Positions 6,817-45,189 of a DNA stretch of 64,000 nucleotides are shown here, piece after piece. Source of the stretch: Escherichia coli (lineage in GTDB: Bacteria > Pseudomonadota > Gammaproteobacteria > Enterobacterales > Enterobacteriaceae); the NCBI RefSeq assembly GCF_024502345.1, contig NZ_JALDNN010000001.1, one strand, 5' to 3'. Position 1 is the stretch's first letter. Each line of letters starts with the position of its first letter. Under the pieces are notes generated by a model that made no database searches, was not told the DNA's origin, and was given only the letters and a program-made list of their open reading frames with translations. The translations under genes were made by a program, and so were the position numbers.

Positions 6817-7095
6817 ATGACCAGAATGAGCACCATTTACAGCAGACTTTCATATGGATCAGGAACCACGCTTGCCGGCTGCGGTGTATCAGCGAAGGCA
6901 TATGCCGAAACAGCTAAAACAGCAAAAGAGGTGTCCTGGATGTTGGCCGACAGAATTGCAGGGTTAAGCCTGAGTGACTGGGCAATTATTGTCGGTATCG
7001 CATGCACAGTTATCACCTGTGCAGTGAACTGGTATTACAGGAAAAAGGAAAGGGAGGACCGGCTTAATGGCAATGTCACCAAAGCAGAAGAATAA
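6817..7095 (+). CDS. phage holin
   Basis: 92 aa, hydrophobic helix WAIIVGIACTVITCAVNWYY, charged C-terminus, immediately upstream of endolysin. Confidence 0.7.
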   Translation: MTRMSTIYSRLSYGSGTTLAGCGVSAKAYAETAKTAKEVSWMLADRIAGLSLSDWAIIVGIACTVITCAVNWYYRKKEREDRLNGNVTKAEE

Positions 7096-7615
7096 ACTGA
7101 GCGCAGCGGTCGTTGGGTTAATTCTTGCCGGGGCTTCCGCACCCGTGATTCTCGATCAGTTTCTGGATGAGAAAGAGGGTAACAGCACAACAGCGTACAA
7201 GGACGGCTCTGGTATATGGACCATTTGTCGTGGCGCTACGATGGTTGATGGCAAGCCAGTAGTTCAGGGCATGAAGCTGTCTGCTGAGAAATGTTCCAAG
7301 GTGAACGCCATAGAACGCGACAAGGCGCTGGCGTGGGTCGAGCGAAACATCAAGGTGCCACTGACCGAACCACAGAAAGCCGGGATCGCGTCTTTCTGCC
7401 CATATAACATCGGTCCCGGAAAATGTTTCCCATCTACGTTCTATAAGCGAATAAATGCTGGCGACCGTGAAGGTGCCTGTGAAGCGATCCGCTGGTGGAT
7501 AAAAGACGGTGGTCGCGATTGTCGTCTGACCAAAGGGCAGAAGAACGGTTGCTATGGTCAGGTTGAACGGCGAGACCAGGAAAGCGCGTTGACGTGCTGG
7601 GGGATAGACCAGTGA
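7067..7615 (+). CDS. phage endolysin, lysozyme family with N-terminal signal-anchor (SAR-type)
   Basis: 182 aa; N-terminal hydrophobic [18 protein letters not shown] followed by lysozyme-like body; position between holin and Rz. Confidence 0.8.
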
Positions 7616-8127
7616 GCCTGCGCTATCAGTTCATTGTTATTTTGTTGCTGGTGGCCGTTGCATTCTTCGCGGGTAGTGTATGGAGCAGCCGCGGTTGGGA
7701 AAAGAAGTGGGCCGAGCGTGACAGCGTAGAATCATCGCAAACAGCGAACGCACAGACCGCCGCTCGCATGATTGAACAAGGGCGTATTATTGCCCGTGAT
7801 GAGGCTGTAAAAGATGCACAAGCACAAGCCGCTAAATCCGCTGCCACTGCTGCTGGCCTGTCTGCCACTGTTAACCAGCTGCGTACCGAAGCAACAAAGC
7901 TTGCCACTCGCCTGGACGCCGCAAAGCACACCGCAGATCTTGCCACTGCCGTCAGAAGCAAAACAGCCGGAGCCGACGCCGCAGTGCTCGCCGACATGCT
8001 CGGACGCCTTGCAGAAGAAGCTCGATATTATGCTGAGCGATCTGACGAAAGCTACCGGGCAGGAATGACGTGTGAGCGCATTTACGACTCAGTGAGGCAG
8101 TCAAACAACAACAGGGTTAGAAGATGA
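7594..8127 (+). CDS. i-spanin (Rz-like); true start may be GTG at 7612
   Basis: N-terminal TM ([15 protein letters not shown]), coiled-coil Ala/Gln-rich periplasmic domain; Rz1 nested in +1 frame. Confidence 0.8.
7814..8068 (+). CDS. o-spanin (Rz1-like lipoprotein) nested inside Rz
   Basis: Signal peptide with lipobox LLTSC, proline-rich mature region; entirely embedded in Rz in another frame. Confidence 0.75.
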
Positions 8128-8354
8128 ACGCAGAAAACCTAAGTGAAGCGTATTACCTCAATAACGATATAAAAGAACTACAACTTCAGAAAAGCATACT
8201 GGAAAGTGGTGCCGGACTTGGTGTGACAATCCAGTCTACCTATCAGGATAACGCCTTTCTTGATGCCATACGCCCGCATGCAGTGGCTGAACTTGATCGC
8301 CGTATTGTGGAGAAGAAAAAAAACCTCTCCACTCTGGGTGTTACATTCTCTTAA
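8124..8354 (+). CDS. hypothetical protein, start overlaps Rz stop (ATGA)
   Basis: 76 aa ORF translationally coupled to Rz; no recognisable motif. Confidence 0.45.
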
Positions 8355-8701
8355 ATGAGAACAACAATAAAAGGTTATGTCTGCTTTGCCACATTCTGAG
8401 AGTATGAGTTTTATTTGGTAGTCAATCAGTTACTTTATTGGTTTGCTTTCCGATGGAAGATAGATGTTTCCACAGAAGGGGCAAATTAACGTTATATTGT
8501 TTTTTATTCTCGACAGACTGTGCTTTGACTGGCGGGAGCAATGAGGACAAGTACTTTTCACATGGCGTAAAGTACGCATCTTGATATCTTTGAGTATCGA
8601 CATGTTGATTGTCCTGGTGGGCGGTTAACAACCATACACCACATGTTGGCTAATAGCTTCTTTTATAACCGTTACGATGTAGTCGTTAGCCATAATCAAT
8701 C

Positions 8702-8727
8702 AAGCCTCGCAATAGCGGGGCTTTTTA
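8702..8727 (+). terminator. possible hairpin plus T-run
   Basis: agcctcgc-aata-gcggggct followed by ttttt. Confidence 0.35.
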
Positions 8728-8738
8728 ACAACTGAGGA

Positions 8739-8942
8739 ATGAGCATTACAGTAGTTCTTACAGCTAAGCAGATTGAAGACCTGGCTGCCTTCGCAAAAGA
8801 AGATGGCCAGCCACAATATACCATCACTACCGGAACAATCCCTGAGTTCGAAGCGGATGATGGCGAGGTTATCCCTGAGTACACCGGGCTGATTGCCTAT
8901 TCCGAGTCGCTAGAGCATAGCGTTCTACAGCTCGATAACTAA
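8739..8942 (+). CDS. hypothetical small acidic protein
   Basis: 67 aa, Asp/Glu-rich, SD-like gaggaa upstream; a degenerate copy of its 3' end recurs at 10.8-10.96 kb. Confidence 0.5.
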   Translation: MSITVVLTAKQIEDLAAFAKEDGQPQYTITTGTIPEFEADDGEVIPEYTGLIAYSESLEHSVLQLDN

Positions 8943-8969
8943 CGAATCAACATAACTTTCCATCCGCCA

Positions 8970-9135
8970 TGACACCACAATGCTCGTAGACATGCCAGGA
9001 AGCCTGGCAGAAGAAGCTCGATACCATGCTGAACGCGCTGATGAAAACTACCGAGCAGGAATGACATGTGAGCGGATTTATGAGTCCGTAAAAATACTAA
9101 CAATGAACCGTAGAGGAAAAATAATAGCTCTATAA
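8970..9135 (+). pseudogene. duplicated 3' fragment of the Rz gene
   Basis: 9006-9092 is an imperfect direct repeat of 8011-8097 (gcagaagaagctcgata..gcaggaatgac.tgtgagcg..attta); would encode ..[27 protein letters not shown].. Confidence 0.7.
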
Positions 9136-9514
9136 ATTAAGATGTTGACGGTTTTCGTGGATAAATTTGTGAATTTTTACTATGAAGGAAATACGACTCT
9201 TCCTTGAGTCAAAATCCCTGACAACTTAGGGTGATAGATAAAGGTCTTACGCAGCATGACATAATTTTCGATTTAAGCTATTTAAATTAATTTTTAAGAT
9301 CAAAACCCACTGAGATTTACTTACAAAACTAAACCTTGCTATGTCTGGTTAATCATGCGTTAATGAATGTCTGGTTTGTAACGAATTTATCTGAAGCAGT
9401 CGCTGTAATAATTTTATTCCTTGTTCCTGTTGAGATTTCCTTGTTAGCTTTTCTCTCTGATAAATTTTTTTCGGACCATTCTGCCCAAGGGCTTACTCAA
9501 TAAAGGTAATGTTT

Positions 9515-9727
9515 ATGTCTAATAAAATGACTGGTTTAGTTAAATGGTTTAATCCTGAAAAAGGTTTTGGTTTTATCACTCCAAAAGATGGTAGTAAAGA
9601 TGTGTTTGTTCACTTCTCTGCTATCCAGAGTAATGATTTCAAGACGTTGAATGAGAATCAGGAAGTTGAATTTAGTGTTGAACAGGGACCTAAAGGCCCC
9701 ACGGCAGTTAATGTCGTGGCTGTATAA
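9515..9727 (+). CDS. cold-shock protein (CspA family), prophage-borne
   Basis: 70 aa [23 protein letters not shown]...; long AT-rich 5' leader typical of csp genes. Confidence 0.9.
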
Positions 9728-9931
9728 GGTAACTGTTATTACTAATAATATTCACTTCAGATGTCCGTGTTGCCACGGATCTCAGTACCGAACGTCAAAC
9801 TTTGATGTTACTGAAAAAAATCCTTTCGGAGCAAAATGTATTTTTTGCAAATCAACAATGATTACATTTGATAATATTGCACTGTACATTCGTTCTGGTC
9901 AGTCTTCGTTAGAATTCAGAAAATAAATTTC

Positions 9932-9955
9932 AGGCTCCTTATGGAGCCTTTTTTG
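9932..9955 (+). terminator. rho-independent terminator
   Basis: aggctcc-ttat-ggagcct followed by tttttt. Confidence 0.7.
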
Positions 9956-9999
9956 TATGCTGAACCGACAATCTCTGTAAGAGACATCACGGTAAAATT

Positions 10000-10230
10000 A
10001 TGAAAAAAGTCATCGTTTTTTTTAATGCAGAACCAGCAGTTGTTGTAACCGTAATGAAAGGTATTACTACGATAATGCGTGAGTTTCCCAATGGGGAAAA
10101 AGCACACCTACCCGTGATGTCAGCGGGATTTCCATCTCTGACAGGAGACCATAAAATAGTTTATGTAGCCTCTGATCGTGATGTCAGTTCAGAAGAGATC
10201 CTCGAGGCAGCCTCGAAGCTTTTGAAATGA
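10000..10230 (+). CDS. hypothetical protein
   Basis: 76 aa ORF; weak RBS; no recognisable motif. Confidence 0.35.
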   Translation: MKKVIVFFNAEPAVVVTVMKGITTIMREFPNGEKAHLPVMSAGFPSLTGDHKIVYVASDRDVSSEEILEAASKLLK

Positions 10231-10434
10231 GATCTGGTTGTTTCGTGACCGACCCGGATTTTAGTACAGTGGTTTGTGTGGTCGCGAGCTCTTTTGCATG
10301 AAGATTGTACTGCAAACTATTGATAATTGAGTCTTTCTATTCTATCTTTTAAACATATCAGCGCTTATACAAGTGCTCTACGGGGAATGTAACATGCCTG
10401 GCGTTGATACGTTAGAGATCAAGAGAGGTAAACA

Positions 10435-10608
10435 ATGAACGTCGAAGATTTAAAAAGAAAAACTGAAGCGGATATTTCTGAATTCATCACAAAAAAAATT
10501 ATTGAACTCAAAAAAAAGACAGGAAAAGAAGTTTCCGATATCCAGTTTAATGCTCGTGAAAAAATGACTGGGCTTGAAAGCTATGATATTAAAATCACAT
10601 TAATCTAA
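10435..10608 (+). CDS. GnsA/GnsB-family small protein
   Basis: 57 aa MNVEDLKRKTEADISEFITKKIIELKKKTGKEVSDIQFNAREKMTGLESYDIKITLI; strong similarity to recalled GnsA/GnsB; below the 60-aa cutoff of the ORF track. Confidence 0.8.
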   Translation: MNVEDLKRKTEADISEFITKKIIELKKKTGKEVSDIQFNAREKMTGLESYDIKITLI

Positions 10609-10632
10609 TTGTTATAAGACTCAGTTCGAGTG

Positions 10633-10667
10633 AAAAAGCATTATCTTGAAAGGTAATGCTTTTTTAT
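10633..10667 (+). terminator. rho-independent terminator after gns-like gene
   Basis: aaagcatta-tcttgaaagg-taatgcttt followed by tttatttc. Confidence 0.7.
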
Positions 10668-10760
10668 TTCTGTCATAAAATTTAGAACGTTGTCAAAGCC
10701 TTCACTTCTAACCACAGATTTTCTGCTTACCTTTTAACGGGTCCTCCTTGACGATTCTGA

Positions 10761-10964
10761 CCATCGAGGGGCAGCAGCGGCGCGGGATTTGGAGCATTTT
10801 TGATTCTTCACGCAACCATTTCAGCATTTGATGCTGATGACGGAACACTATCCCCGAATACACTGGGTTTGTTGCATTCTCTGATTCAAAAGAACACGGT
10901 GTGCTTCAACTTGGCTGAGCAGGCATTACAGCAGACATTCACTGAGTGCCTGCGACAAAGTTAA
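10761..10964 (+). pseudogene. start-less 3' remnant related to the 8739-8942 gene
   Basis: Frame encodes ..FDADDGTLSPNTLGLL.. resembling ..FEADDGEVIPEYTGLI.. of the 8739 ORF; no in-frame start codon after the upstream stop. Confidence 0.45.
10921..10958 (+). repeat. ~35-bp boundary repeat, copy 1
   Basis: cattacagcagacattcactgagtgcctgcgacaa; near-identical copy at 11311-11343. Confidence 0.6.
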
Positions 10965-11049
10965 ATGGCATCAAGCATGCGATGATGATTGATTAATAAT
11001 TGAGCTATGCATGGTATAATAAGCCCCATTCATTGAAAGGTTAACCACC

Positions 11050-11214
11050 ATGTCATTTTTCGATTATGCAATGCAGCGTGTTGGGCTTGCAGCCAATACG
11101 ACTGTCATGTGCCCGATATGCGGACATAAATCCACACACTCGACCACGAAAGTACGCCAACAACAGGCGTTACTTTGCCCTAAATGTAAATCGCTGTTTG
11201 TCATTCACAGATAA
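11050..11214 (+). CDS. small zinc-ribbon protein (CxxC...CxxC)
   Basis: 54 aa MSFFDYAMQRVGLAANTTVMCPICGH...LCPKCKSLFVIHR; upstream -10 tataat at ~11015; two terminators downstream. Confidence 0.6.
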   Translation: MSFFDYAMQRVGLAANTTVMCPICGHKSTHSTTKVRQQQALLCPKCKSLFVIHR

Positions 11215-11232
11215 CATGCGACCTGCTGAATA

Positions 11233-11257
11233 TAACCGCCTACGGGCGGTTTTTTAT
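11233..11257 (+). terminator. rho-independent terminator
   Basis: accgcctacgggcggt followed by tttttt. Confidence 0.75.
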
Positions 11258-11268
11258 TGCCATCACAA

Positions 11269-11293
11269 AGGCCACTTTCGAGTGGCTTTTTTA
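11269..11293 (+). terminator. second rho-independent terminator
   Basis: gccactttcgagtggc followed by ttttttaa. Confidence 0.65.
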
Positions 11294-11310
11294 ATGGTCA
11301 TCACGACGGG

Positions 11311-11343
11311 TATTACAGCAGGAATTACTGAGTGCCTGCGATA
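11311..11343 (+). repeat. ~35-bp boundary repeat, copy 2
   Basis: tattacagcaggaattactgagtgcctgcgataat; matches 10921-10958. Confidence 0.6.
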
Positions 11344-11370
11344 ATGCTCAATATTTTTATCGGAGTGAAT

Positions 11371-11559
11371 ATGCCACCGCGCACACCGAAGGCCGGCCTG
11401 AAAGGGGCGATACAAAAAAGGGAAAAAATGAAAAGACATAAGCGAAATAAAAAAGCCACCACATCTGCAAATGTGATGGCTGGCATTCGGATTAATTCAG
11501 GTTGGCTGAATAAGTTAGCCGCAGATATTACTAAAATAATTAATGAAGCATGTCCCTAA
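11371..11559 (+). CDS. hypothetical small basic protein
   Basis: 62 aa from ATG with ggag SD; Lys/Arg-rich; no known motif. Confidence 0.3.
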   Translation: MPPRTPKAGLKGAIQKREKMKRHKRNKKATTSANVMAGIRINSGWLNKLAADITKIINEACP

Positions 11560-11956
11560 TCTCATCTGAGATATCTCTTGGCCCTGCAGGCTGAGGCGCA
11601 ACCAACCGGGTCGGAAGTCTCTCGAAGAAACCACCACCACCATGATGATGAAAACCCCGGTTATTTTTATAACTATTGAAGTTACTGTCGGTAGTGAGAA
11701 GGATGTTGCACTGGTGCGAGCAGTCAACAACAACGACATCACCTGCATTCAGGTGCATTCGTTTGTGAAGAAATTGCATAAGTCTCCTTATCAAGAGGCA
11801 ATCAGCACTCCTCTCAAGGCTGGTACGCCAACGTCCCACCGCTGACGGGCTGAGCCATTACCTTACCCAGACTCAACGATAAGTAACATCCTGATATTCA
11901 GACAGTAACTGTAATCGATAATGCTGAAGAATAGGCAGTAAATACAGGTGACTGAT

Positions 11957-12595
11957 ATGGCAACACTGAAGGATTTATCAAACCAGTTAAAGCAACTGCA
12001 AAAGCAAATCCCGTTTGCCACAGCTCAGGCGATGACAAAAGTTGTACGCCAGATTGAGTTGGCTCAGAAGACGGCATTCGAACGACATCTGGAGAGCCCC
12101 ACGCCGTTTACCGTTAAATCAGTTGGTTCGGTGGCGGCAAGAAAGAACAATCTGACCGCAAAGGTTTTTGTCCGTGATACCGCTGCTGGTTATCTGGAAC
12201 CATTCGAGTTTGGCGGAGAGCACAAGCTCAATAGCCAGGCTCTATTAAATCCCAAGAACGTTAAGCTAAACAAATACGGCAACATGCCGCGTAATAAGCT
12301 CTCACAGCTTAAAGCAAAGGAAAATGTATTCGTAGGTGAGGTTGATGGCGTTAACGCTGTCTGGCAGCGTAAGAAGCCGATGAAAGCTAAGAAGCGACGG
12401 GCCAAACGTTCCGCTAACGGGACGCGAAGACCGAAACGCAAACAGCGTTCTCCAAAGCTTTTGATCCGGTTTGGTGATGCGCTACCTGTGACTCCAGTGC
12501 TGGGGTATATGGATAGGGCCCGTACCATGGCGAACGCACTGCTACCGTCTGCTTTAAATCAGGCGATAGCAGAAGCCATCAGGACGGCAAAATAA
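11957..12595 (+). CDS. hypothetical phage protein with highly basic segment
   Basis: 213 aa (alternative GTG start at 11948); SD aggtga; region RKKPMKAKKRRAKRSANGTRRPKRKQRSPK suggests nucleic-acid binding. Confidence 0.6.
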   Translation: MATLKDLSNQLKQLQKQIPFATAQAMTKVVRQIELAQKTAFERHLESPTPFTVKSVGSVAARKNNLTAKVFVRDTAAGYLEPFEFGGEHKLNSQALLNPKNVKLNKYGNMPRNKLSQLKAKENVFVGEVDGVNAVWQRKKPMKAKKRRAKRSANGTRRPKRKQRSPKLLIRFGDALPVTPVLGYMDRARTMANALLPSALNQAIAEAIRTAK

Positions 12596-12605
12596 AAGCA
12601 GTAAC

Positions 12606-13109
12606 TTATAAGTTAATTTCGCAAGCTTTTATGAAGCTGTTTACTGCAGTTGTCGATCCAGAAACATTGGCTGACATGGAATGCTGGTTTCCGCCATCCT
12701 TTGTTTGCACACCAACTAACACTTTGGATTTCGCCCCCTGAAGCTGCTTAAGCACTGTTTTCAGTTGGTCCGTGTCATCCGATTGAATCTGGAGGCTCTG
12801 AACATTACGTCTTGAAAGGGTAGCATCGAGCTTCACTGCGGTATTCCCGTCGACCTTCATTATCAGGTCCATTGGTACCTCTGATAGTGATTCGGTGCTT
12901 TTATCCATTTCAACGTATGCCGCCGATAGCTTTTCTTTAGTGCAGTCAAACACAATGGCGCCATTGTCGGATGAAACCTCGCCAAGCATCATTGCTTTCT
13001 TACCACCAGAGAAAAGGTCATCTTCAGTATTAGTTACCCACTGGGCATGAGCAATTGGTGATGCCAGCACTGCGGCTACGAAAGTTATTTTGATTATATT
13101 GTTACCCAT
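12606..13109 (-). CDS. secreted/periplasmic protein of unknown function (opposite-strand cargo gene)
   Basis: 168 aa; strong SD aaggagaatgta; signal peptide MGNNIIKITFVAAVLASPIAHA|QW; convergent with and 10 bp from the preceding gene. Confidence 0.6.
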   Translation of the reverse strand: MGNNIIKITFVAAVLASPIAHAQWVTNTEDDLFSGGKKAMMLGEVSSDNGAIVFDCTKEKLSAAYVEMDKSTESLSEVPMDLIMKVDGNTAVKLDATLSRRNVQSLQIQSDDTDQLKTVLKQLQGAKSKVLVGVQTKDGGNQHSMSANVSGSTTAVNSFIKACEINL

Positions 13110-13252
13110 TACATTCTCCTTGTATTGAATAGGAATAATCATAGTCGGAGCGAATGGTCGAAGCCATTAAAAAAATGGGTCCTTCCTGAGACTTTTGTAA
13201 GGCACGGGCATTGCGCGCCGCGGTGTTTTCCTAGCTACAACTTTCAGATTTG

Positions 13253-13402
13253 TGTCCCATGTCCCACCTCTGGCGATCATTACGGACACCTCGCCAGCTC
13301 TGGCTATTCCAGTTTATTCCAGTGGGACATTCTGGTGGGACATGGCAAAAATGTCCCAGGCGAATGTCCCACCCCAGAAAATGTCCCAGGTGATGTCCCA
13401 TG
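13253..13402. repeat. Cluster of eight TGTCCCA/TGGGACA heptamer repeats immediately upstream of terminase small subunit
   Basis: Copies at 13253, 13260, 13323(rc), 13336(rc), 13352, 13365, 13382, 13394; the last overlaps the terS ATG. Confidence 0.7.
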
Positions 13403-13969
13403 ACCACGATGAACCAGAGTCAGTACGCACAACATTCAGGTGTGGATCGCAAAACAATTGGTCGGTGGATTAAAGCCGGGCGCTTCATTGTGATGGACGG
13501 AGACCTGATTGACGTAGAGGCCAGCGATGCGGCATTGAAGAAAAACCGCGATGGCAAAGACCCGCGCGCCTCGAACGCGAAGAAAAAGAAAACTCCCGTC
13601 GTTAGCGATAACGATGATGACGGTGATGAAATCAATAAAACTGTCCGCCAGATAATGCTCACTGAAGGGGCAGATCTTTCGAGAGAGGAAGCGGGACGTA
13701 TCCGCGAGAATTACATGGCCCTGCAGGCAAAGCTGCAGTATGAAAAAGACAGCGGCCAGCTTATTGAGCTGACAGCAGCCGAGGAGGTTTTATTCAACGC
13801 CTTTCGCCAACAGCGTGATGCCTGGCTTAACTGGCCGTCCAGGGTGGCGCCGCTAATGGCTGCTGATCTGGATGTACCGGCGGACAGGATGACAGAGGTG
13901 CTGATTGAACATGTCCACAAACACATCTCAGTCCTCGGAGAGCCAGAGTTTAACCCGGCAGAAGATTGA
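13400..13969 (+). CDS. terminase small subunit (Nu1-like, N-terminal HTH)
   Basis: 189 aa; N-terminal ..VDRKTIGRWIKAGRF.. winged-helix pattern as in lambda Nu1; followed by large terminase. Confidence 0.7.
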   Translation: MTTMNQSQYAQHSGVDRKTIGRWIKAGRFIVMDGDLIDVEASDAALKKNRDGKDPRASNAKKKKTPVVSDNDDDGDEINKTVRQIMLTEGADLSREEAGRIRENYMALQAKLQYEKDSGQLIELTAAEEVLFNAFRQQRDAWLNWPSRVAPLMAADLDVPADRMTEVLIEHVHKHISVLGEPEFNPAED

Positions 13970-16034
13970 GCGTCTTGAATTAAGCGTCCGCAAAGGCTGG
14001 ACACCCCCGCCGCGTATCAGTGTGCCGCAGTGGGCAGATGACTATCGTAAGCTGGCAAAAGAGGCTGGGAGCACTTCGGGAAACTGGGAAACATCGACGG
14101 TAGAAATTGCCCGCGGACCGATGCTTGCCGCGACGGAGTCCGGGGTTCATATCATCACTGTAATGTGCTGTACCCAGTTGATGAAGACAGCACTGCTGGA
14201 AAACCTTTTTGGCTATTTTGCCCACCTCGATCCTTGTCCGATACTGCTGCTGCAGCCGAAAGAAGAAGCCGCTGAACAGTTTTCGAAAGAGCGTATTAGC
14301 CCGCTGGTAAGGGTGACGCCGGTACTGCGTAAAATCATCGGTGATTCGAAACAGAAAAGCTCGAAAGAAACCATTCTTTACAAGGCATTCACTGGCGGAT
14401 TTCTGGCGCTGGCGGGTGCTGGTAGCCCTGATAACCTTGCGCGTCGTCCGATTCGTGTCCTGCTGGCGGATGAAGTGGACAAGTACCCGATAACCCGCGA
14501 AGGCGATCCAATTGCGCTGGCCGAAGAGCGTACAGCGACATTTGGCCTGACCTGGCTGTCTGTACGCGCCTGTTCGCCGACGGTGGAGGATGAGAGCCGC
14601 ATTGCTGACAGCTACGCCGACTCCGATCAGCGCCGGGCATCTGTGGTTTGCCCGCACTGTGGCCACCGCCAGTTCCCCGACTTTTTCAAACACGTTCAGT
14701 GGCCGAAAGAGGGAGATAAACACCTGACTAAATCGGCGATGCTCTATTGCGAATGCTGTGGTAGTGGCTGGTCCGAAGGACAGCGCCTCAGAGCTCTGCA
14801 CACTATTCGATGGCATCAGACGCGCCCATTTGAGTGCTGCGGGGAGCGGCACTCACCGCTGATGGATTATGACCTTGCCTGGCGGGCGGCAGACGAGGGC
14901 AGCGTTGAAAAGGTCTGGCAATGGTCAGAGTCGGAACGGCATGCGGTCTATCGCGCAATCTGCCCCTCCTGTGGAAAGGAGGCAGTCGATAACCACCACG
15001 CGGGGTACCAGGCATCCAAGCTTTTCAGCCCCTGGCAAAAAGATAAGCCGTCGGATATTGCGAAAAAATATATCGATGCGAAGGGCGATCCGGATAAGGA
15101 ACAGGCGTGGTGGAATACCCAGATGGGGCTTCCGCACCGACCTAATCATGGGAAACAGCTCCCTGTTGATGTTCTGCTGGCGCGCCGGGAAATATTTCCG
15201 GCCGTCGTTCCGGACGGGGTGGCATTGTTAACAGCTGGAGTTGATACCCAGGACGATCGCTTCGAAATTACGATCACCGGCTGGGGGAGAGATGAAGAAT
15301 CGTGGTCGGTCGCGCATGACGTTATTTATGGTGACCTTGAGACGGAAGAACCCTGGAAGCGACTGGATGCATACCTGAAACAGATCTGGCGACGTGGTGA
15401 CGGGCGCGGCCTGAATATCATGGCAACGTGCATGGACTCCGGTGGCCACCATACGCAGAAGGTATACGAATTCGCCAAAGAGCGTCTTGGCCGTCGTGTC
15501 TGGGCAATTAAGGGGGAGTCTGCACAGGGAGGTAAACGCAATCCTGTCTGGCCGACCAAACGACCATCATCGAAAAGCAAAGCCAGTTTCCGCCCTGTCA
15601 TTCTGGGGGTTAACTCAGCGAAAGACGTGATACGCGGTCGCCTGCATCTTGAGCCACCCAAACCTGGCGCCGCCGCTGCGGGTTATATGCATTTTCCTGA
15701 CGATCGCGATCTCGGGTACTTCAATCAGCTGCTGGCGGAGCGACTGGTTTACAAAGTCATTTCCGGGCAGCGGTACAGTATCTGGGAAGCAATACCAGGA
15801 CGAGCTAACGAAGCGCTTGACTGCCTCGTTTACAGCTATGCCGCGCTGTGCGGTCTCAAACATATGGGGTTAAAACTCAACGTCCGGGCCGCCAACCTCG
15901 AAGCCGATCCGGATAAGTTCCTGCCAGCGCCAGTTGGACAGGAAGAAAAAATCAATTACGAGCTGCCGGGTGCGGTTATTGAAGAACCAGCGCCGGTCAA
16001 ACGTAAGCGAATATCGCAACTCCTGCCGAAATAA
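13905..16034 (+). CDS. terminase large subunit (lambda gpA-like)
   Basis: 709 aa, position and size; overlaps terS 3' end as in lambda Nu1/A. Confidence 0.8.
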   Translation: MNMSTNTSQSSESQSLTRQKIERLELSVRKGWTPPPRISVPQWADDYRKLAKEAGSTSGNWETSTVEIARGPMLAATESGVHIITVMCCTQLMKTALLENLFGYFAHLDPCPILLLQPKEEAAEQFSKERISPLVRVTPVLRKIIGDSKQKSSKETILYKAFTGGFLALAGAGSPDNLARRPIRVLLADEVDKYPITREGDPIALAEERTATFGLTWLSVRACSPTVEDESRIADSYADSDQRRASVVCPHCGHRQFPDFFKHVQWPKEGDKHLTKSAMLYCECCGSGWSEGQRLRALHTIRWHQTRPFECCGERHSPLMDYDLAWRAADEGSVEKVWQWSESERHAVYRAICPSCGKEAVDNHHAGYQASKLFSPWQKDKPSDIAKKYIDAKGDPDKEQAWWNTQMGLPHRPNHGKQLPVDVLLARREIFPAVVPDGVALLTAGVDTQDDRFEITITGWGRDEESWSVAHDVIYGDLETEEPWKRLDAYLKQIWRRGDGRGLNIMATCMDSGGHHTQKVYEFAKERLGRRVWAIKGESAQGGKRNPVWPTKRPSSKSKASFRPVILGVNSAKDVIRGRLHLEPPKPGAAAAGYMHFPDDRDLGYFNQLLAERLVYKVISGQRYSIWEAIPGRANEALDCLVYSYAALCGLKHMGLKLNVRAANLEADPDKFLPAPVGQEEKINYELPGAVIEEPAPVKRKRISQLLPK

Positions 16035-43599: not shown

Positions 43600-45189
43600 T
43601 CAGCTCAACGCCAGTAGCTGACGCGTATACTCCTGCTGCGGTGTGGCAAACACGCGCGCGCACGGTCCTTGTTCCACTACTTCCCCTTGTCGCAGTACGA
43701 TAACCTGATGACATAACGCGCGGACAACGTGCAAATCGTGGCTGATAAACAAATAGGCCAGTTGATGCTTTTGTTGCAATGATTTCAATAGCGTCAATAT
43801 TTGCGCCTGTACCGTTTTGTCGAGTGATGATGTCGGTTCATCAAGTATGATCAGCGAGGGCTTAAGAATTAATGCCCTGGCAATCGCAATACGTTGTCGC
43901 TGACCACCAGAGAACTCCGCCGGATAACGGTGGCGTGTTTCAGGATCTAATCCCACTTCATGCATCACGGCTATCACTTGTTGTTCGCGTTGTGCGGCAG
44001 AAAGCGTCGGCTGGTGAACCCGTAAGCCTTCCTCAATAATCTGCAAAACGTTGAGTCGTGGGTTGAGCGAGGAGTTTGGATCCTGAAATACCACCTGAAT
44101 GCGATGACGAATAGGTAACAGCTGGCGGCGATTTAAATTTTGCAGTGGCTGACCGTCAAAGATGATGCTGCCCTGAGAATTAATCAGTCGCAGCAGCGCC
44201 AGTCCCGTCGTACTTTTCCCGGAACCGGACTCGCCCACTAAACCCAGTGTTTCACCCGCTCGTAGCGTAAAACTGATGTTTTTCACCACCACATTATGAT
44301 CCACAATGCGCTTCAAAATCCCTTTGCGAATGGGGAAGGCAACCTGAAGCTGTTCAACATCCAGCAACGTTGAGGCAGGTTCTGGCAACGGCACTGGATC
44401 GCCTGACGATTCACTGTTGAGTAGCTTTTGTGTGTAAGGATGAGTGGGTGAGGCAAATAGCGTAGCGGCGTAATTTTGCTCGACACAGCGACCGTTTTGC
44501 ATTACCGCCACGCGGTGGGCCAGTTTTCTGACAATGCTGAGGTTATGAGTAATAAACAGCATGCCCATATTCAGCTCGCCTTGCAGTTCGCGCAACAGCT
44601 GTAAAATCTGCGCCTGGACAGAGACGTCCAGTGCGGTGGTCGGTTCATCGGCAATTAATAATTCCGGTCGCGTTAACAGCGCCATCGCAATCATCACCCG
44701 CTGGCGTTCGCCGCCGGAGAGCTGATGCGGATAATCTGTCAGCCGTTTTGCCGCCTGGCGGATACCAACGCGATCAAGGCAGTTAAGAATTTCGCCACGA
44801 GCCGCTTCCCGACGCATCCCGCGGTGGAGTGAAAGCACTTCATAAAGCTGTTTTTCCAGGGTATGCAATGGATTTAACGACACCATCGGCTCCTGAAAAA
44901 TCATGGCGATCTTATTACCACGTACGCCGCGCAACGTTTGATCGCTGGCATGAAGCAGCGATTCGCCATGAAAACGAATATCGCCGGAGAGATATTCAAC
45001 CGGCGGGGAAGGGAGCAGGCGTAAAATTGACAGCGCGGTAACGCTTTTGCCTGAACCAGACTCACCCACCAGCGCCAGCGTTTCGCCAGCCTCAATCTGT
45101 AGTGAAACATCATTTACTACTGTACGTACGGTTTGCTGATGGCGAAAACCCACCGACAAATCTTCAATCGCTAACAGAGTTTGCGTCAT
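43600..45189 (-). CDS. yejF: microcin C/peptide ABC transporter ATP-binding protein (duplicated ATPase)
   Basis: 529 aa from [11 protein letters not shown]; two Walker A motifs (GESGSGKS). Confidence 0.95.

Follow-up and report, generated by a model that had tools for sequence, protein, structure and literature searches.

The window analysed here is a stretch of 64,000 nt from an Escherichia coli contig (NZ_JALDNN010000001.1; positions refer to this stretch), in which positions 9140-11600 form the accessory ("moron") part of a lambdoid prophage, located between its lysis and packaging modules. The original prediction had pointed there to a repeated sequence of ~35 bp. The repeat is real, and it could be refined to a discrete 40-nt element with the consensus GGCATTACAGCAGGCATTCACTGAGTGCCTGCGATAATGC, hereafter element E, present in two copies (A at 10922-10961 and B at 11309-11347). 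E is predicted to be a sense-strand hairpin under selection of its own, with a covarying stem and a conserved loop; it is this linker element that is new here, the cargo genes belonging to already known families. For the region as a whole, the best explanation is probably that of a mosaic of several events, with a captured Qin-type block, a YnfU moron, and E as the hairpin linker. In addition, E is a strong candidate for a new structured RNA motif, as judged from its covariation, its strand specificity, its presence across the order and its adjacency to stop codons.

Sequence, structure and distribution of element E

Copy A has kept the canonical 5' part, whereas at its junction with the YnfU module the 3' arm has given way to GACAAAG; it also has one mismatch in the inner stem. 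Copy B has a loop shorter by 1 nt and also one inner-stem mismatch, and its variant precedes an intact HNH endonuclease gene in loci L018 and L028. Both copies have a 15-nt exact core in common and ~33 of 38 positions alike, with one 1-nt indel. They are non-coding, lie in different reading frames and follow unrelated upstream genes, which excluded the possibility that the repeat is the coding 3' end of two paralogous genes. A covariance model (R1) built from unrelated phages found exactly two matches in the 64 kb, namely copies A and B. Since these reach ~42 bits as compared with 55-67 bits for canonical copies, both of them were considered somewhat degraded.

From the outside inwards, E consists of an outer stem (GCAUUA/UAAUGC), an internal loop (CA/GA), an inner stem of 7 bp whose sequence varies, and the loop UUCNNUGAG. 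When the arms and the loop were fixed and the inner stem was left free (search pattern ATTACA-N7-TTC-NN-TGAG-N7-GATAATG), the 7+7 free positions were complementary in nearly every match, across many stem sequences (GCAGGCA/TGCCTGC, GAAGCTC/GGGCTTC, GCAGCCC/GGGCTGC, GGTGGCA/TGCCATC and CAGCTCA/TGGGCTG are examples). Among 81 distinct E sequences, 95.7% of the cells are paired and six of the seven inner pairs have changed on both sides; none of 500 shuffles matched the observed values, and pairing drops to 26-47% in slid registers. The 61 copies from species-representative genomes contain 369 Watson-Crick cells, 52 G.U and 6 mismatches, two of which are A.C. Because G.U far exceeds A.C, it is the sense strand that appears to fold, as RNA or possibly as sense-strand DNA. 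A linker acting as a mere patch of homology does not account for a covarying sense-strand hairpin with a conserved loop.

The same data bear on the idea that the repeat has no function of its own and is a stretch of shared ancestry left at the joints, its palindrome being incidental. Joints of phage mosaics do often keep short shared segments, and both copies in the window are imperfect. Compensatory changes, however, hold the stem paired in at least 10 stem sequences, the loop and the arms are conserved over more than 20 Enterobacterales genera, the orientation and the adjacency to a stop codon are constant, and adjacent tandem copies combine different stems with the same arms and loop. As the stem covaries, this reading is contradicted, and we consider it very improbable.

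The searches covered IMG/VR contigs, deposited phages, 5426 complete E. coli genomes, species-representative genomes, Rfam 15, Pfam, NCBIfam and PHROG. A search of genomes for the repeat motif, as had been proposed with its first description, found it widely in prophages of Enterobacterales. The exact 25-nt E pattern is present in 45 IMG/VR contigs, whose flanks differ on both sides and diverge directly outside the ~40 nt; at least 120 contigs match the pattern that leaves the stems free, and overall E is found in at least 160 viral contigs. BLAST detected it in 35 deposited phages, among them phi80, mEp390, cdtI, P27, ST64B, Fels-1, Pectobacterium ZF40, Edwardsiella EPP-1 and Klebsiella prophages, usually once per genome and unannotated; in the detailed annotation of phi80 nothing is marked at the E site (44298-44337), which has Rha as its upstream gene. 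The complete E. coli genomes with E number 140; Nissle 1917 is one of them, as are DH5alpha and DH10B, which carry phi80 remnants. The species-representative genomes gave 60 loci from more than 20 Enterobacterales genera, plus, as the sole exception, one 1.3-kb contig (L218) of a metagenome-assembled genome labelled Flavobacterium psychrophilum. This contig and the Elizabethkingia phage EKP1 (OM284015) are the only occurrences outside Enterobacterales, and both are probably mis-binned or mis-assigned enterobacterial phage DNA. Rfam 15 gave no match to E, either within the window at E-values up to 1 or in the phi80, ST64B, ZF40, P27 and EPP-1 loci at E-values up to 5, and a literature search by the E sequence (both strands) and by keywords did not find the element.

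Each prophage carries one to three copies of E, all co-oriented. In 28 of 237 loci E occurs in tandem, with two or three co-oriented copies separated by one small gene each; adjacent copies have the same arms and loop and usually differ in the inner stem. Units of "small gene + E" were observed in L056 (3646-3685 and 4000-4039), three copies are present in each of L065 and L161, and pairs spaced by 311 nt were seen in ~10 loci. The different inner stems of neighbouring copies would reduce deletion by recombination between them.

Element E at the junctions of modules

In every annotated phage examined except FSL SP-016, E is located past the lysis cassette, from which one or two accessory genes usually separate it, and ahead of the packaging genes, along the direction of late transcription; in FSL SP-016 the lysis genes are encoded on the other strand, and E is still 3' of a co-oriented gene. 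Its neighbours are Rz, endolysin and holin genes upstream and HNH, terS and terL genes downstream. The next open reading frame (ORF) is co-oriented in 143 of 174 contexts, with a median start offset of 53 nt. E does not have the features of an intrinsic terminator: no T-run follows it, and terminator-like sites within 90 nt downstream were found in just 4 of the 174 contexts. At E, the sequence GGC↓AUUACA fits the RNase E site pattern RN↓WUU and is a candidate site.

In 33 of 68 independent upstream classes, and likewise in 30 of 61 genome loci, the stop codon of a co-oriented ORF upstream has its first base 4-7 nt ahead of ATTACA. Such an arrangement could mean that the accessory genes in the late operon are under a cis-acting translational signal, E, that is linked to the stop codon and controls termination, ribosome stalling and rescue, or re-initiation. 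In roughly half of the independent contexts the stop lies against E or overlaps its first bases, the loop of the element includes UGA and its 3' arm includes UAAUG, and the next gene usually starts ~20-50 nt further on. Furthermore, there is a precedent in the repetitive extragenic palindromic (REP) hairpins, which lower the expression of the upstream gene when they lie within 15 nt of its stop codon. Nevertheless, the stop is more than 15 nt from E in about one third of the contexts, and with respect to E the upstream stops are found in each of the three frames. Nor is the AUG strictly kept, with GATAATAT in Fels-1, GATAATA in L004 and L019, and GACAAAG in the copies at the YnfU junction; it is rarely a start, as 77 of 125 contexts give ORFs shorter than 20 codons and the long ones use a later in-frame AUG. 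A translational signal is thus an improbable reading. The more specific idea that the ATG within E is a gene start, or a portable initiation region, was ruled out on the same ORF lengths and the same losses of the ATG.

The flanks of E reassort. The 168 instances from other phages present 70 upstream and 87 downstream flank classes in 119 combinations. A single upstream class is found with 17 downstream classes and a single downstream class with 8 upstream ones, and three pairs of upstream classes have at least two downstream classes in common. Homology ends exactly at the edges of E, which is flanked by non-homologous modules that reassort independently, as in a boundary or linker sequence. 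The modular shuffling at conserved linkers that had been proposed for this region holds in this respect, although several of its joints cut through genes or sites, as described below. The stem-loop cores differ at 1.75 and 1.45 positions when one flank is shared, as against 5.32 in unrelated pairs, while the three bases before E track the upstream flank and the base after E tracks the downstream one. Because the core is similar whichever flank is shared, homologous exchange across the 40-bp patch is favoured instead of a single site-specific cut; site-specific recombination at one fixed crossover point found no support.

Under the mechanism that we propose, E, being near-identical between unrelated phages, would provide ~40 bp of homology, sufficient for a Red/RecT-type or RecA exchange of the modules on either side; an exchange at E would yield arrangements like gene-E-YnfU-E-HNH. 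Lambda Red works with 35-50 nt of homology. E would also be transcribed within the Q-dependent late mRNA and would fold as an intercistronic RNA hairpin. As the likeliest role, which we put forward tentatively, it may act on the upstream cistron as a processing or stability barrier, with a host factor reading the conserved loop; an RNA operator of another kind seems unlikely. It is likewise doubtful, to about the same degree, that E represents a functional signal so far overlooked, in RNA or in sense-strand DNA, which a conserved host factor or a phage enzyme reads and which defines exchangeable "gene-E" units. As regards a phage-encoded partner, no adjacent gene family is universal next to E, and phi80 and ZF40 have only holin, endolysin and a CII-like protein in common; since they share no more than these, a factor acting in trans on E is more likely to be host-encoded.

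Another possibility is that E is a strand-specific single-stranded DNA (ssDNA) recombination site, attC-like or REP-like, with a recombinase or transposase that moves "gene-E" cassettes and a post-lysis region that is a small cassette array. In agreement with this, the palindrome of E is imperfect, its internal mismatch being fixed, its ends conserved and its centre variable but covarying; the element lies directly after small co-oriented ORFs, it forms the tandem arrays mentioned above (as in L056), and the left junction of the YnfU module always falls at one point within it (...CTGCGA↓CAAAG). However, no recombinase gene accompanies E (the genes common to phi80 and ZF40 include none), and the element contains neither the attC core sites (RYYYAAC/GTTRRRY) nor the GTAG motif of REPs. 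Moreover, it is the sense strand of E that folds, whereas attC folds on the bottom strand; the core follows either flank equally, without a single crossover point; and there are just one to three copies per prophage, with no chromosomal dispersal. We therefore regard an ssDNA recombination site as improbable too, and retain a hairpin linker exchanged by homology as the preferred reading.

This preferred reading has several points against it. Twenty positions of E, including the outer stem, were fixed by the search patterns, and conservation there is partly by construction; the fixed positions were also recovered independently by BLAST matches at 87-90% identity and by the first pattern. The sampling is skewed to sequenced clinical Enterobacterales. 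An RNA role is deduced from the strand-asymmetric wobble pairs and the orientation, which are its sole basis, and the hairpin is possibly one of sense-strand ssDNA instead of RNA. A plain stability hairpin would need no conserved loop. Exchange requires copies of E with near-identical cores, since the arms by themselves, at 8-10 nt, do not reach the length that homologous recombination needs. Finally, the copies in the window may be relics.

As for known systems, conserved boundary sequences serving as recombination targets between lambdoid modules constitute one of the two models in PMC3233612. Like them, E is a short conserved stretch exactly between non-homologous modules whose flanks reassort; it differs in being a structured, strand-specific, covarying hairpin, found post-lysis only and common to phages with very different virion modules, the comparison being one of features. 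The boundary-sequence model is reportedly due to Susskind and Botstein and to Clark et al. 2001 (HK620). In T4-type phages, promoter-early stem-loops (PeSL) are said (Arbiol et al. 2010) to flank ORFan genes and to mediate modular shuffling. They resemble E as repeated stem-loops that bracket small accessory genes in a hyperplastic region and supply homology, whereas E has no promoter, belongs to temperate phages of Enterobacterales, is present in one to three copies rather than dozens and is adjacent to stop codons.

REPs have roles in mRNA 3' stabilisation and in translation. REPs and bacterial interspersed mosaic elements (BIMEs) are, like E, imperfect palindromes of 35-40 nt located just past stop codons inside operons. 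E differs from them in sequence, lacks GTAG, always points the same way with respect to the gene before it and is confined to prophages; E. coli genomes having any E have it in one place, with the copies co-oriented. With the attC sites of integrons E has in common an imperfect palindrome after each small co-oriented ORF, conserved ends, a variable centre and tandem arrays, but it has no core sites (no R''/R' motifs in the consensus), no integrase (no recombinase is common to phi80 and ZF40) and no single crossover point. A T-loop or anticodon mimic, a hammerhead core, a BglG RAT, a CRISPR repeat, a dif/Xer arm and a LexA box were dropped on inspection of the alignment, in which the required positions are variable or absent.

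The probably captured Qin-type block and the YnfU cassette

The features of the region are collected in Table 1. The cargo genes are ordinary members of known families, consisting of a Qin-type cold-shock module and YnfU morons. The original prediction had recognised a CspA-family gene with a long leader, a GnsA/B-like gene of 57 aa and a zinc-ribbon gene of 54 aa with its own promoter and two terminators, and all three were confirmed. Its further small ORFs also proved to be members of conserved families, although the YmcF-like gene had been overlooked.

Table 1. Features identified in the late region of the prophage, in order of position
Feature	Position	Strand	Evidence or remark
Endolysin gene	7067-7615
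Rz gene, intact	7594-8127
phrog_5415 gene	8124-8354
YnfU-family gene #2, 57 aa	8433-8603	-	NF038384 76.4 bits (cut-off 36); PF23499 54.9 bits
phrog_9518 gene, intact, 67 aa	8739-8942	+	phrog_9518 130 bits
3' remnant of a second Rz spanin gene	8971-9135	+	Left edge of imported block
cspA-type thermoregulator, long 5' leader and early coding region	9370-9786	+	Rfam RF01766
CspG/CspI-like cold-shock gene, 70 aa	9515-9727	+	NCBIfam NF007378, Pfam CSD
YmcF-like small zinc-binding cold-shock protein gene, 62 aa, ATT start	9738-9926	+	PF23641 126.6 bits
Terminator after ymcF-like gene	9932-9949
YnfN-like gene, 76 aa	10000-10230	+	phrog_3425 142 bits; collinear with annotated ynfN in L001
GnsB-like gene, 57 aa	10435-10608	+	Pfam PF08178 110 bits, model positions 1-54 of 54
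Terminator hairpin after gnsB-like gene	10633-10664		Inverted repeat
Lambda-type cos remnant	10737-10795	+	Right edge of imported block; cosQ ACGGGTCCT, 23 nt, GGGCAGCAGCGG, CGCGG
Frameshifted 3' remnant (~third) of a phrog_9518 67-aa gene, paralogous to 8739-8942	10818-10919	+	DNA and protein alignments
Element E, copy A	10922-10961	+	R1 42.2 bits, E-value 1.6e-9; fold -19.6 kcal/mol
Sigma-70-like promoter, TTAATA-16-TATAAT with TG	10993-11020	+	Best-scoring promoter-like site of the region, 10 of 12
YnfU-family zinc-ribbon gene, 54 aa	11050-11214	+	NCBIfam NF038384 72.9 bits (cut-off 36)
Two tandem intrinsic terminators	11234-11292	+	11234-11251 and T-run; GCCACTTTCGAGTGGC and TTTTTT at 11271-11292
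Element E, copy B	11309-11347	+	R1 41.7 bits, E-value 2.2e-9; fold -17.7 kcal/mol, z -3.1
Chimeric ORF, HNH endonuclease codons 1-8 (MPPRTPKA) joined to unrelated lysine-rich sequence	11371-11559	+	HNH part 11371-11393
phrog_1924 gene	11948-12595		"Minor tail protein" homologue
Secreted-type, signal-peptide-like ORF, 178 aa	12606-13142	-
Second lambda-type cos, next to terS gene	13177-13232	+	Aligned with lambda cos; probably the working one
DUF1441-type small terminase gene (terS)	13400

The csp gene encodes a cold-shock domain protein of the CspA family (CspG equivalog NF007378, 145.6 bits against a cut-off of 144; PF00313, 112.5 bits), and its structured leader matches RF01766 in full length (model positions 1-428 of 428) with 142.8 bits, over the gathering score of 78. 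The ymcF-like gene starts 11 nt past the csp stop, at the same place and with the same ATT start as the RefSeq ymcF in the E. coli locus L001. A weak Rfam match to the Salmonella sRNA STnc220 (9884-9960; 43 bits, under the gathering score of 60) spans the ymcF-like 3' end and the terminator. The comparison with Qin-type prophages showed that the block is collinear with rzpQ-cspI-ymcF-ynfN-gnsB of the E. coli prophage (L001), with equal order and spacing and 69-75% identity by blastn; for the cspI-ynfN core the identity was 79.8% over 891 nt (megablast). The block is like the E. coli cluster in its genes, their order, the place after Rz and before cos, and the full RF01766 leader, and differs from it in having a truncated Rz on the left, a terminase-less cos on the right and a location within the post-lysis region of another phage.

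Leftovers of earlier joins frame this block. The Rz remnant corresponds to the last ~45 codons of the gene and is 82% identical to positions 7975-8093 of the intact Rz; its translation matches the Rz C-terminus, and its DNA aligns with the 3' end of rzpQ in L001. On the right, the cos remnant is a unique match to its pattern, with 0 expected by chance, and can be aligned to lambda's cos in its joined form as well as to the cos regions of L001 and of Citrobacter phage Chris1. The roles of the cos subsites and the conservation of cosQ are described in PMC4669245. We required a 7-bp cosQ (GGGTCCT) and, ~23 nt downstream, a cosN with the 12-nt cohesive-end sequence, flanked by CG; the cosQ sequence and the spacing are those of the lambda alignment. 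In the alignment with lambda cos, both this site and the one at 13177-13232, in the same orientation and 2.4 kb apart, have the cosQ and cosN of the lambda type. The second site presents TGTCCCA repeats and a terS gene 170 nt downstream; the first one has neither and is for this reason read as a remnant. About eight copies of TGTCCCA/TGGGACA in both orientations lie at 13250-13400, directly upstream of the small terminase gene, and are probably cosB-type binding sites for TerS. Packaging termination requires only cosQ, cosN and I2 (PMC4669245), and hence the internal cos could give premature cutting; this could be avoided if its divergent cosN goes unrecognised or if the prophage is defective.

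The stretch 10761-10964 had been considered a remnant of the 8739 gene. This applies only to ~10818-10919, which reads IPEYTGFVAFSDSKEHGVLQLG as compared with IPEYTGLIAYSESLEHSVLQLDN in the 8739-type gene and has 72% identity to the 3' end of an intact gene in L046; 10737-10795 is the cos remnant, and 10922-10961 is the repeat itself. E lies directly 3' of the phrog_9518 gene in other phages (contexts L008, L031, L036, L041 and L046), whereas in the window the intact phrog_9518 gene abuts the Rz remnant. In the chimeric ORF after copy B, homology to the intact HNH locus L028 stops at 11393, and the ORF has no family match in Pfam, NCBIfam or PHROG. The HNH type is the one that accompanies P27/HK97-type terminases, which suggests that the present lambda-type packaging module took the place of an HNH-cos-terS one.

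The region would thus have been built through several recombination events. Judging from its ends, 8971-10795 was captured whole and represents the right end of a Qin-like phage, starting within Rz and stopping shortly after cosN. In a first step, the block Rz'-cspI-ymcF-ynfN-gnsB-cos' would have been taken from another lambdoid phage, its truncated ends being illegitimate joins. We attribute these joints to illegitimate recombination because they cut through genes and sites (Rz', cos', the 67-aa gene, HNH codon 8) and not at linkers. In a second step, a self-contained YnfU moron (promoter, gene and two terminators) would follow the cold-shock block.

The zinc-ribbon gene belongs to the YnfU family by its NF038384 match and its two CxxC pairs, with CPICG...CPKC visible in the translation, and has 96% DNA identity to an unannotated stretch of Chris1. 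A promoter-like site and terminators of its own surround this single gene, as in a moron, these being consensus matches only; the second terminator (hairpin 11271-11286 and T-run) was read by eye. In the loci carrying the module, its left junction is always inside E, at ...CTGCGA↓CAAAG, and is found behind at least four different upstream sequences. The right end varies; the repeats do flank the zinc-ribbon cassette in the window and in a few relatives, as had been noted, but there is no fixed unit. In Chris1 (L002, 4997-5030), an E derivative at the same junction is a perfect 13-bp hairpin (TGTCACAGGCATT-TAGTG-AATGCCTGTGACA) that has lost the conserved loop, and the YnfU gene after it is unannotated in the record.

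The surroundings (7000-14000) correspond to the late region of the lambdoid prophage. The second YnfU gene is encoded on the minus strand, with the phrog_5415 gene on one side and, on the other, the terminator ahead of the 67-aa gene; relatives L003 and L046 have a plus-strand YnfU gene at the corresponding position. The phrog_1924 tail-gene homologue is oddly located between the cargo region and cos/terS, and in locus L026 a phrog_1924 gene lies directly 3' of E. The IMG/VR contig 2938152372_000003 is identical to the window across 10050-12131; the best DNA matches of the region are the E. coli Qin-like cold-shock cluster (~80%) and Chris1 (96% over 280 nt).

Element E and the mosaicism of lambdoid phages

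The origin of phage mosaics has been debated between targeted exchange at conserved linkers and random illegitimate joins filtered by selection. The window shows both modes, since joins that cut genes (Rz', cos', HNH') are found beside a 40-nt element that precisely joins dozens of modules. As E is present in phi80, P27, ST64B, Fels-1, and in DH5alpha and DH10B through their phi80 remnants, its function and its role in recombination are directly testable with standard genetics. If E did define exchangeable units, the array of "gene-E" would be to lambdoid phages what cassettes are to integrons, and would exemplify Botstein-type modular evolution mediated by linkers.

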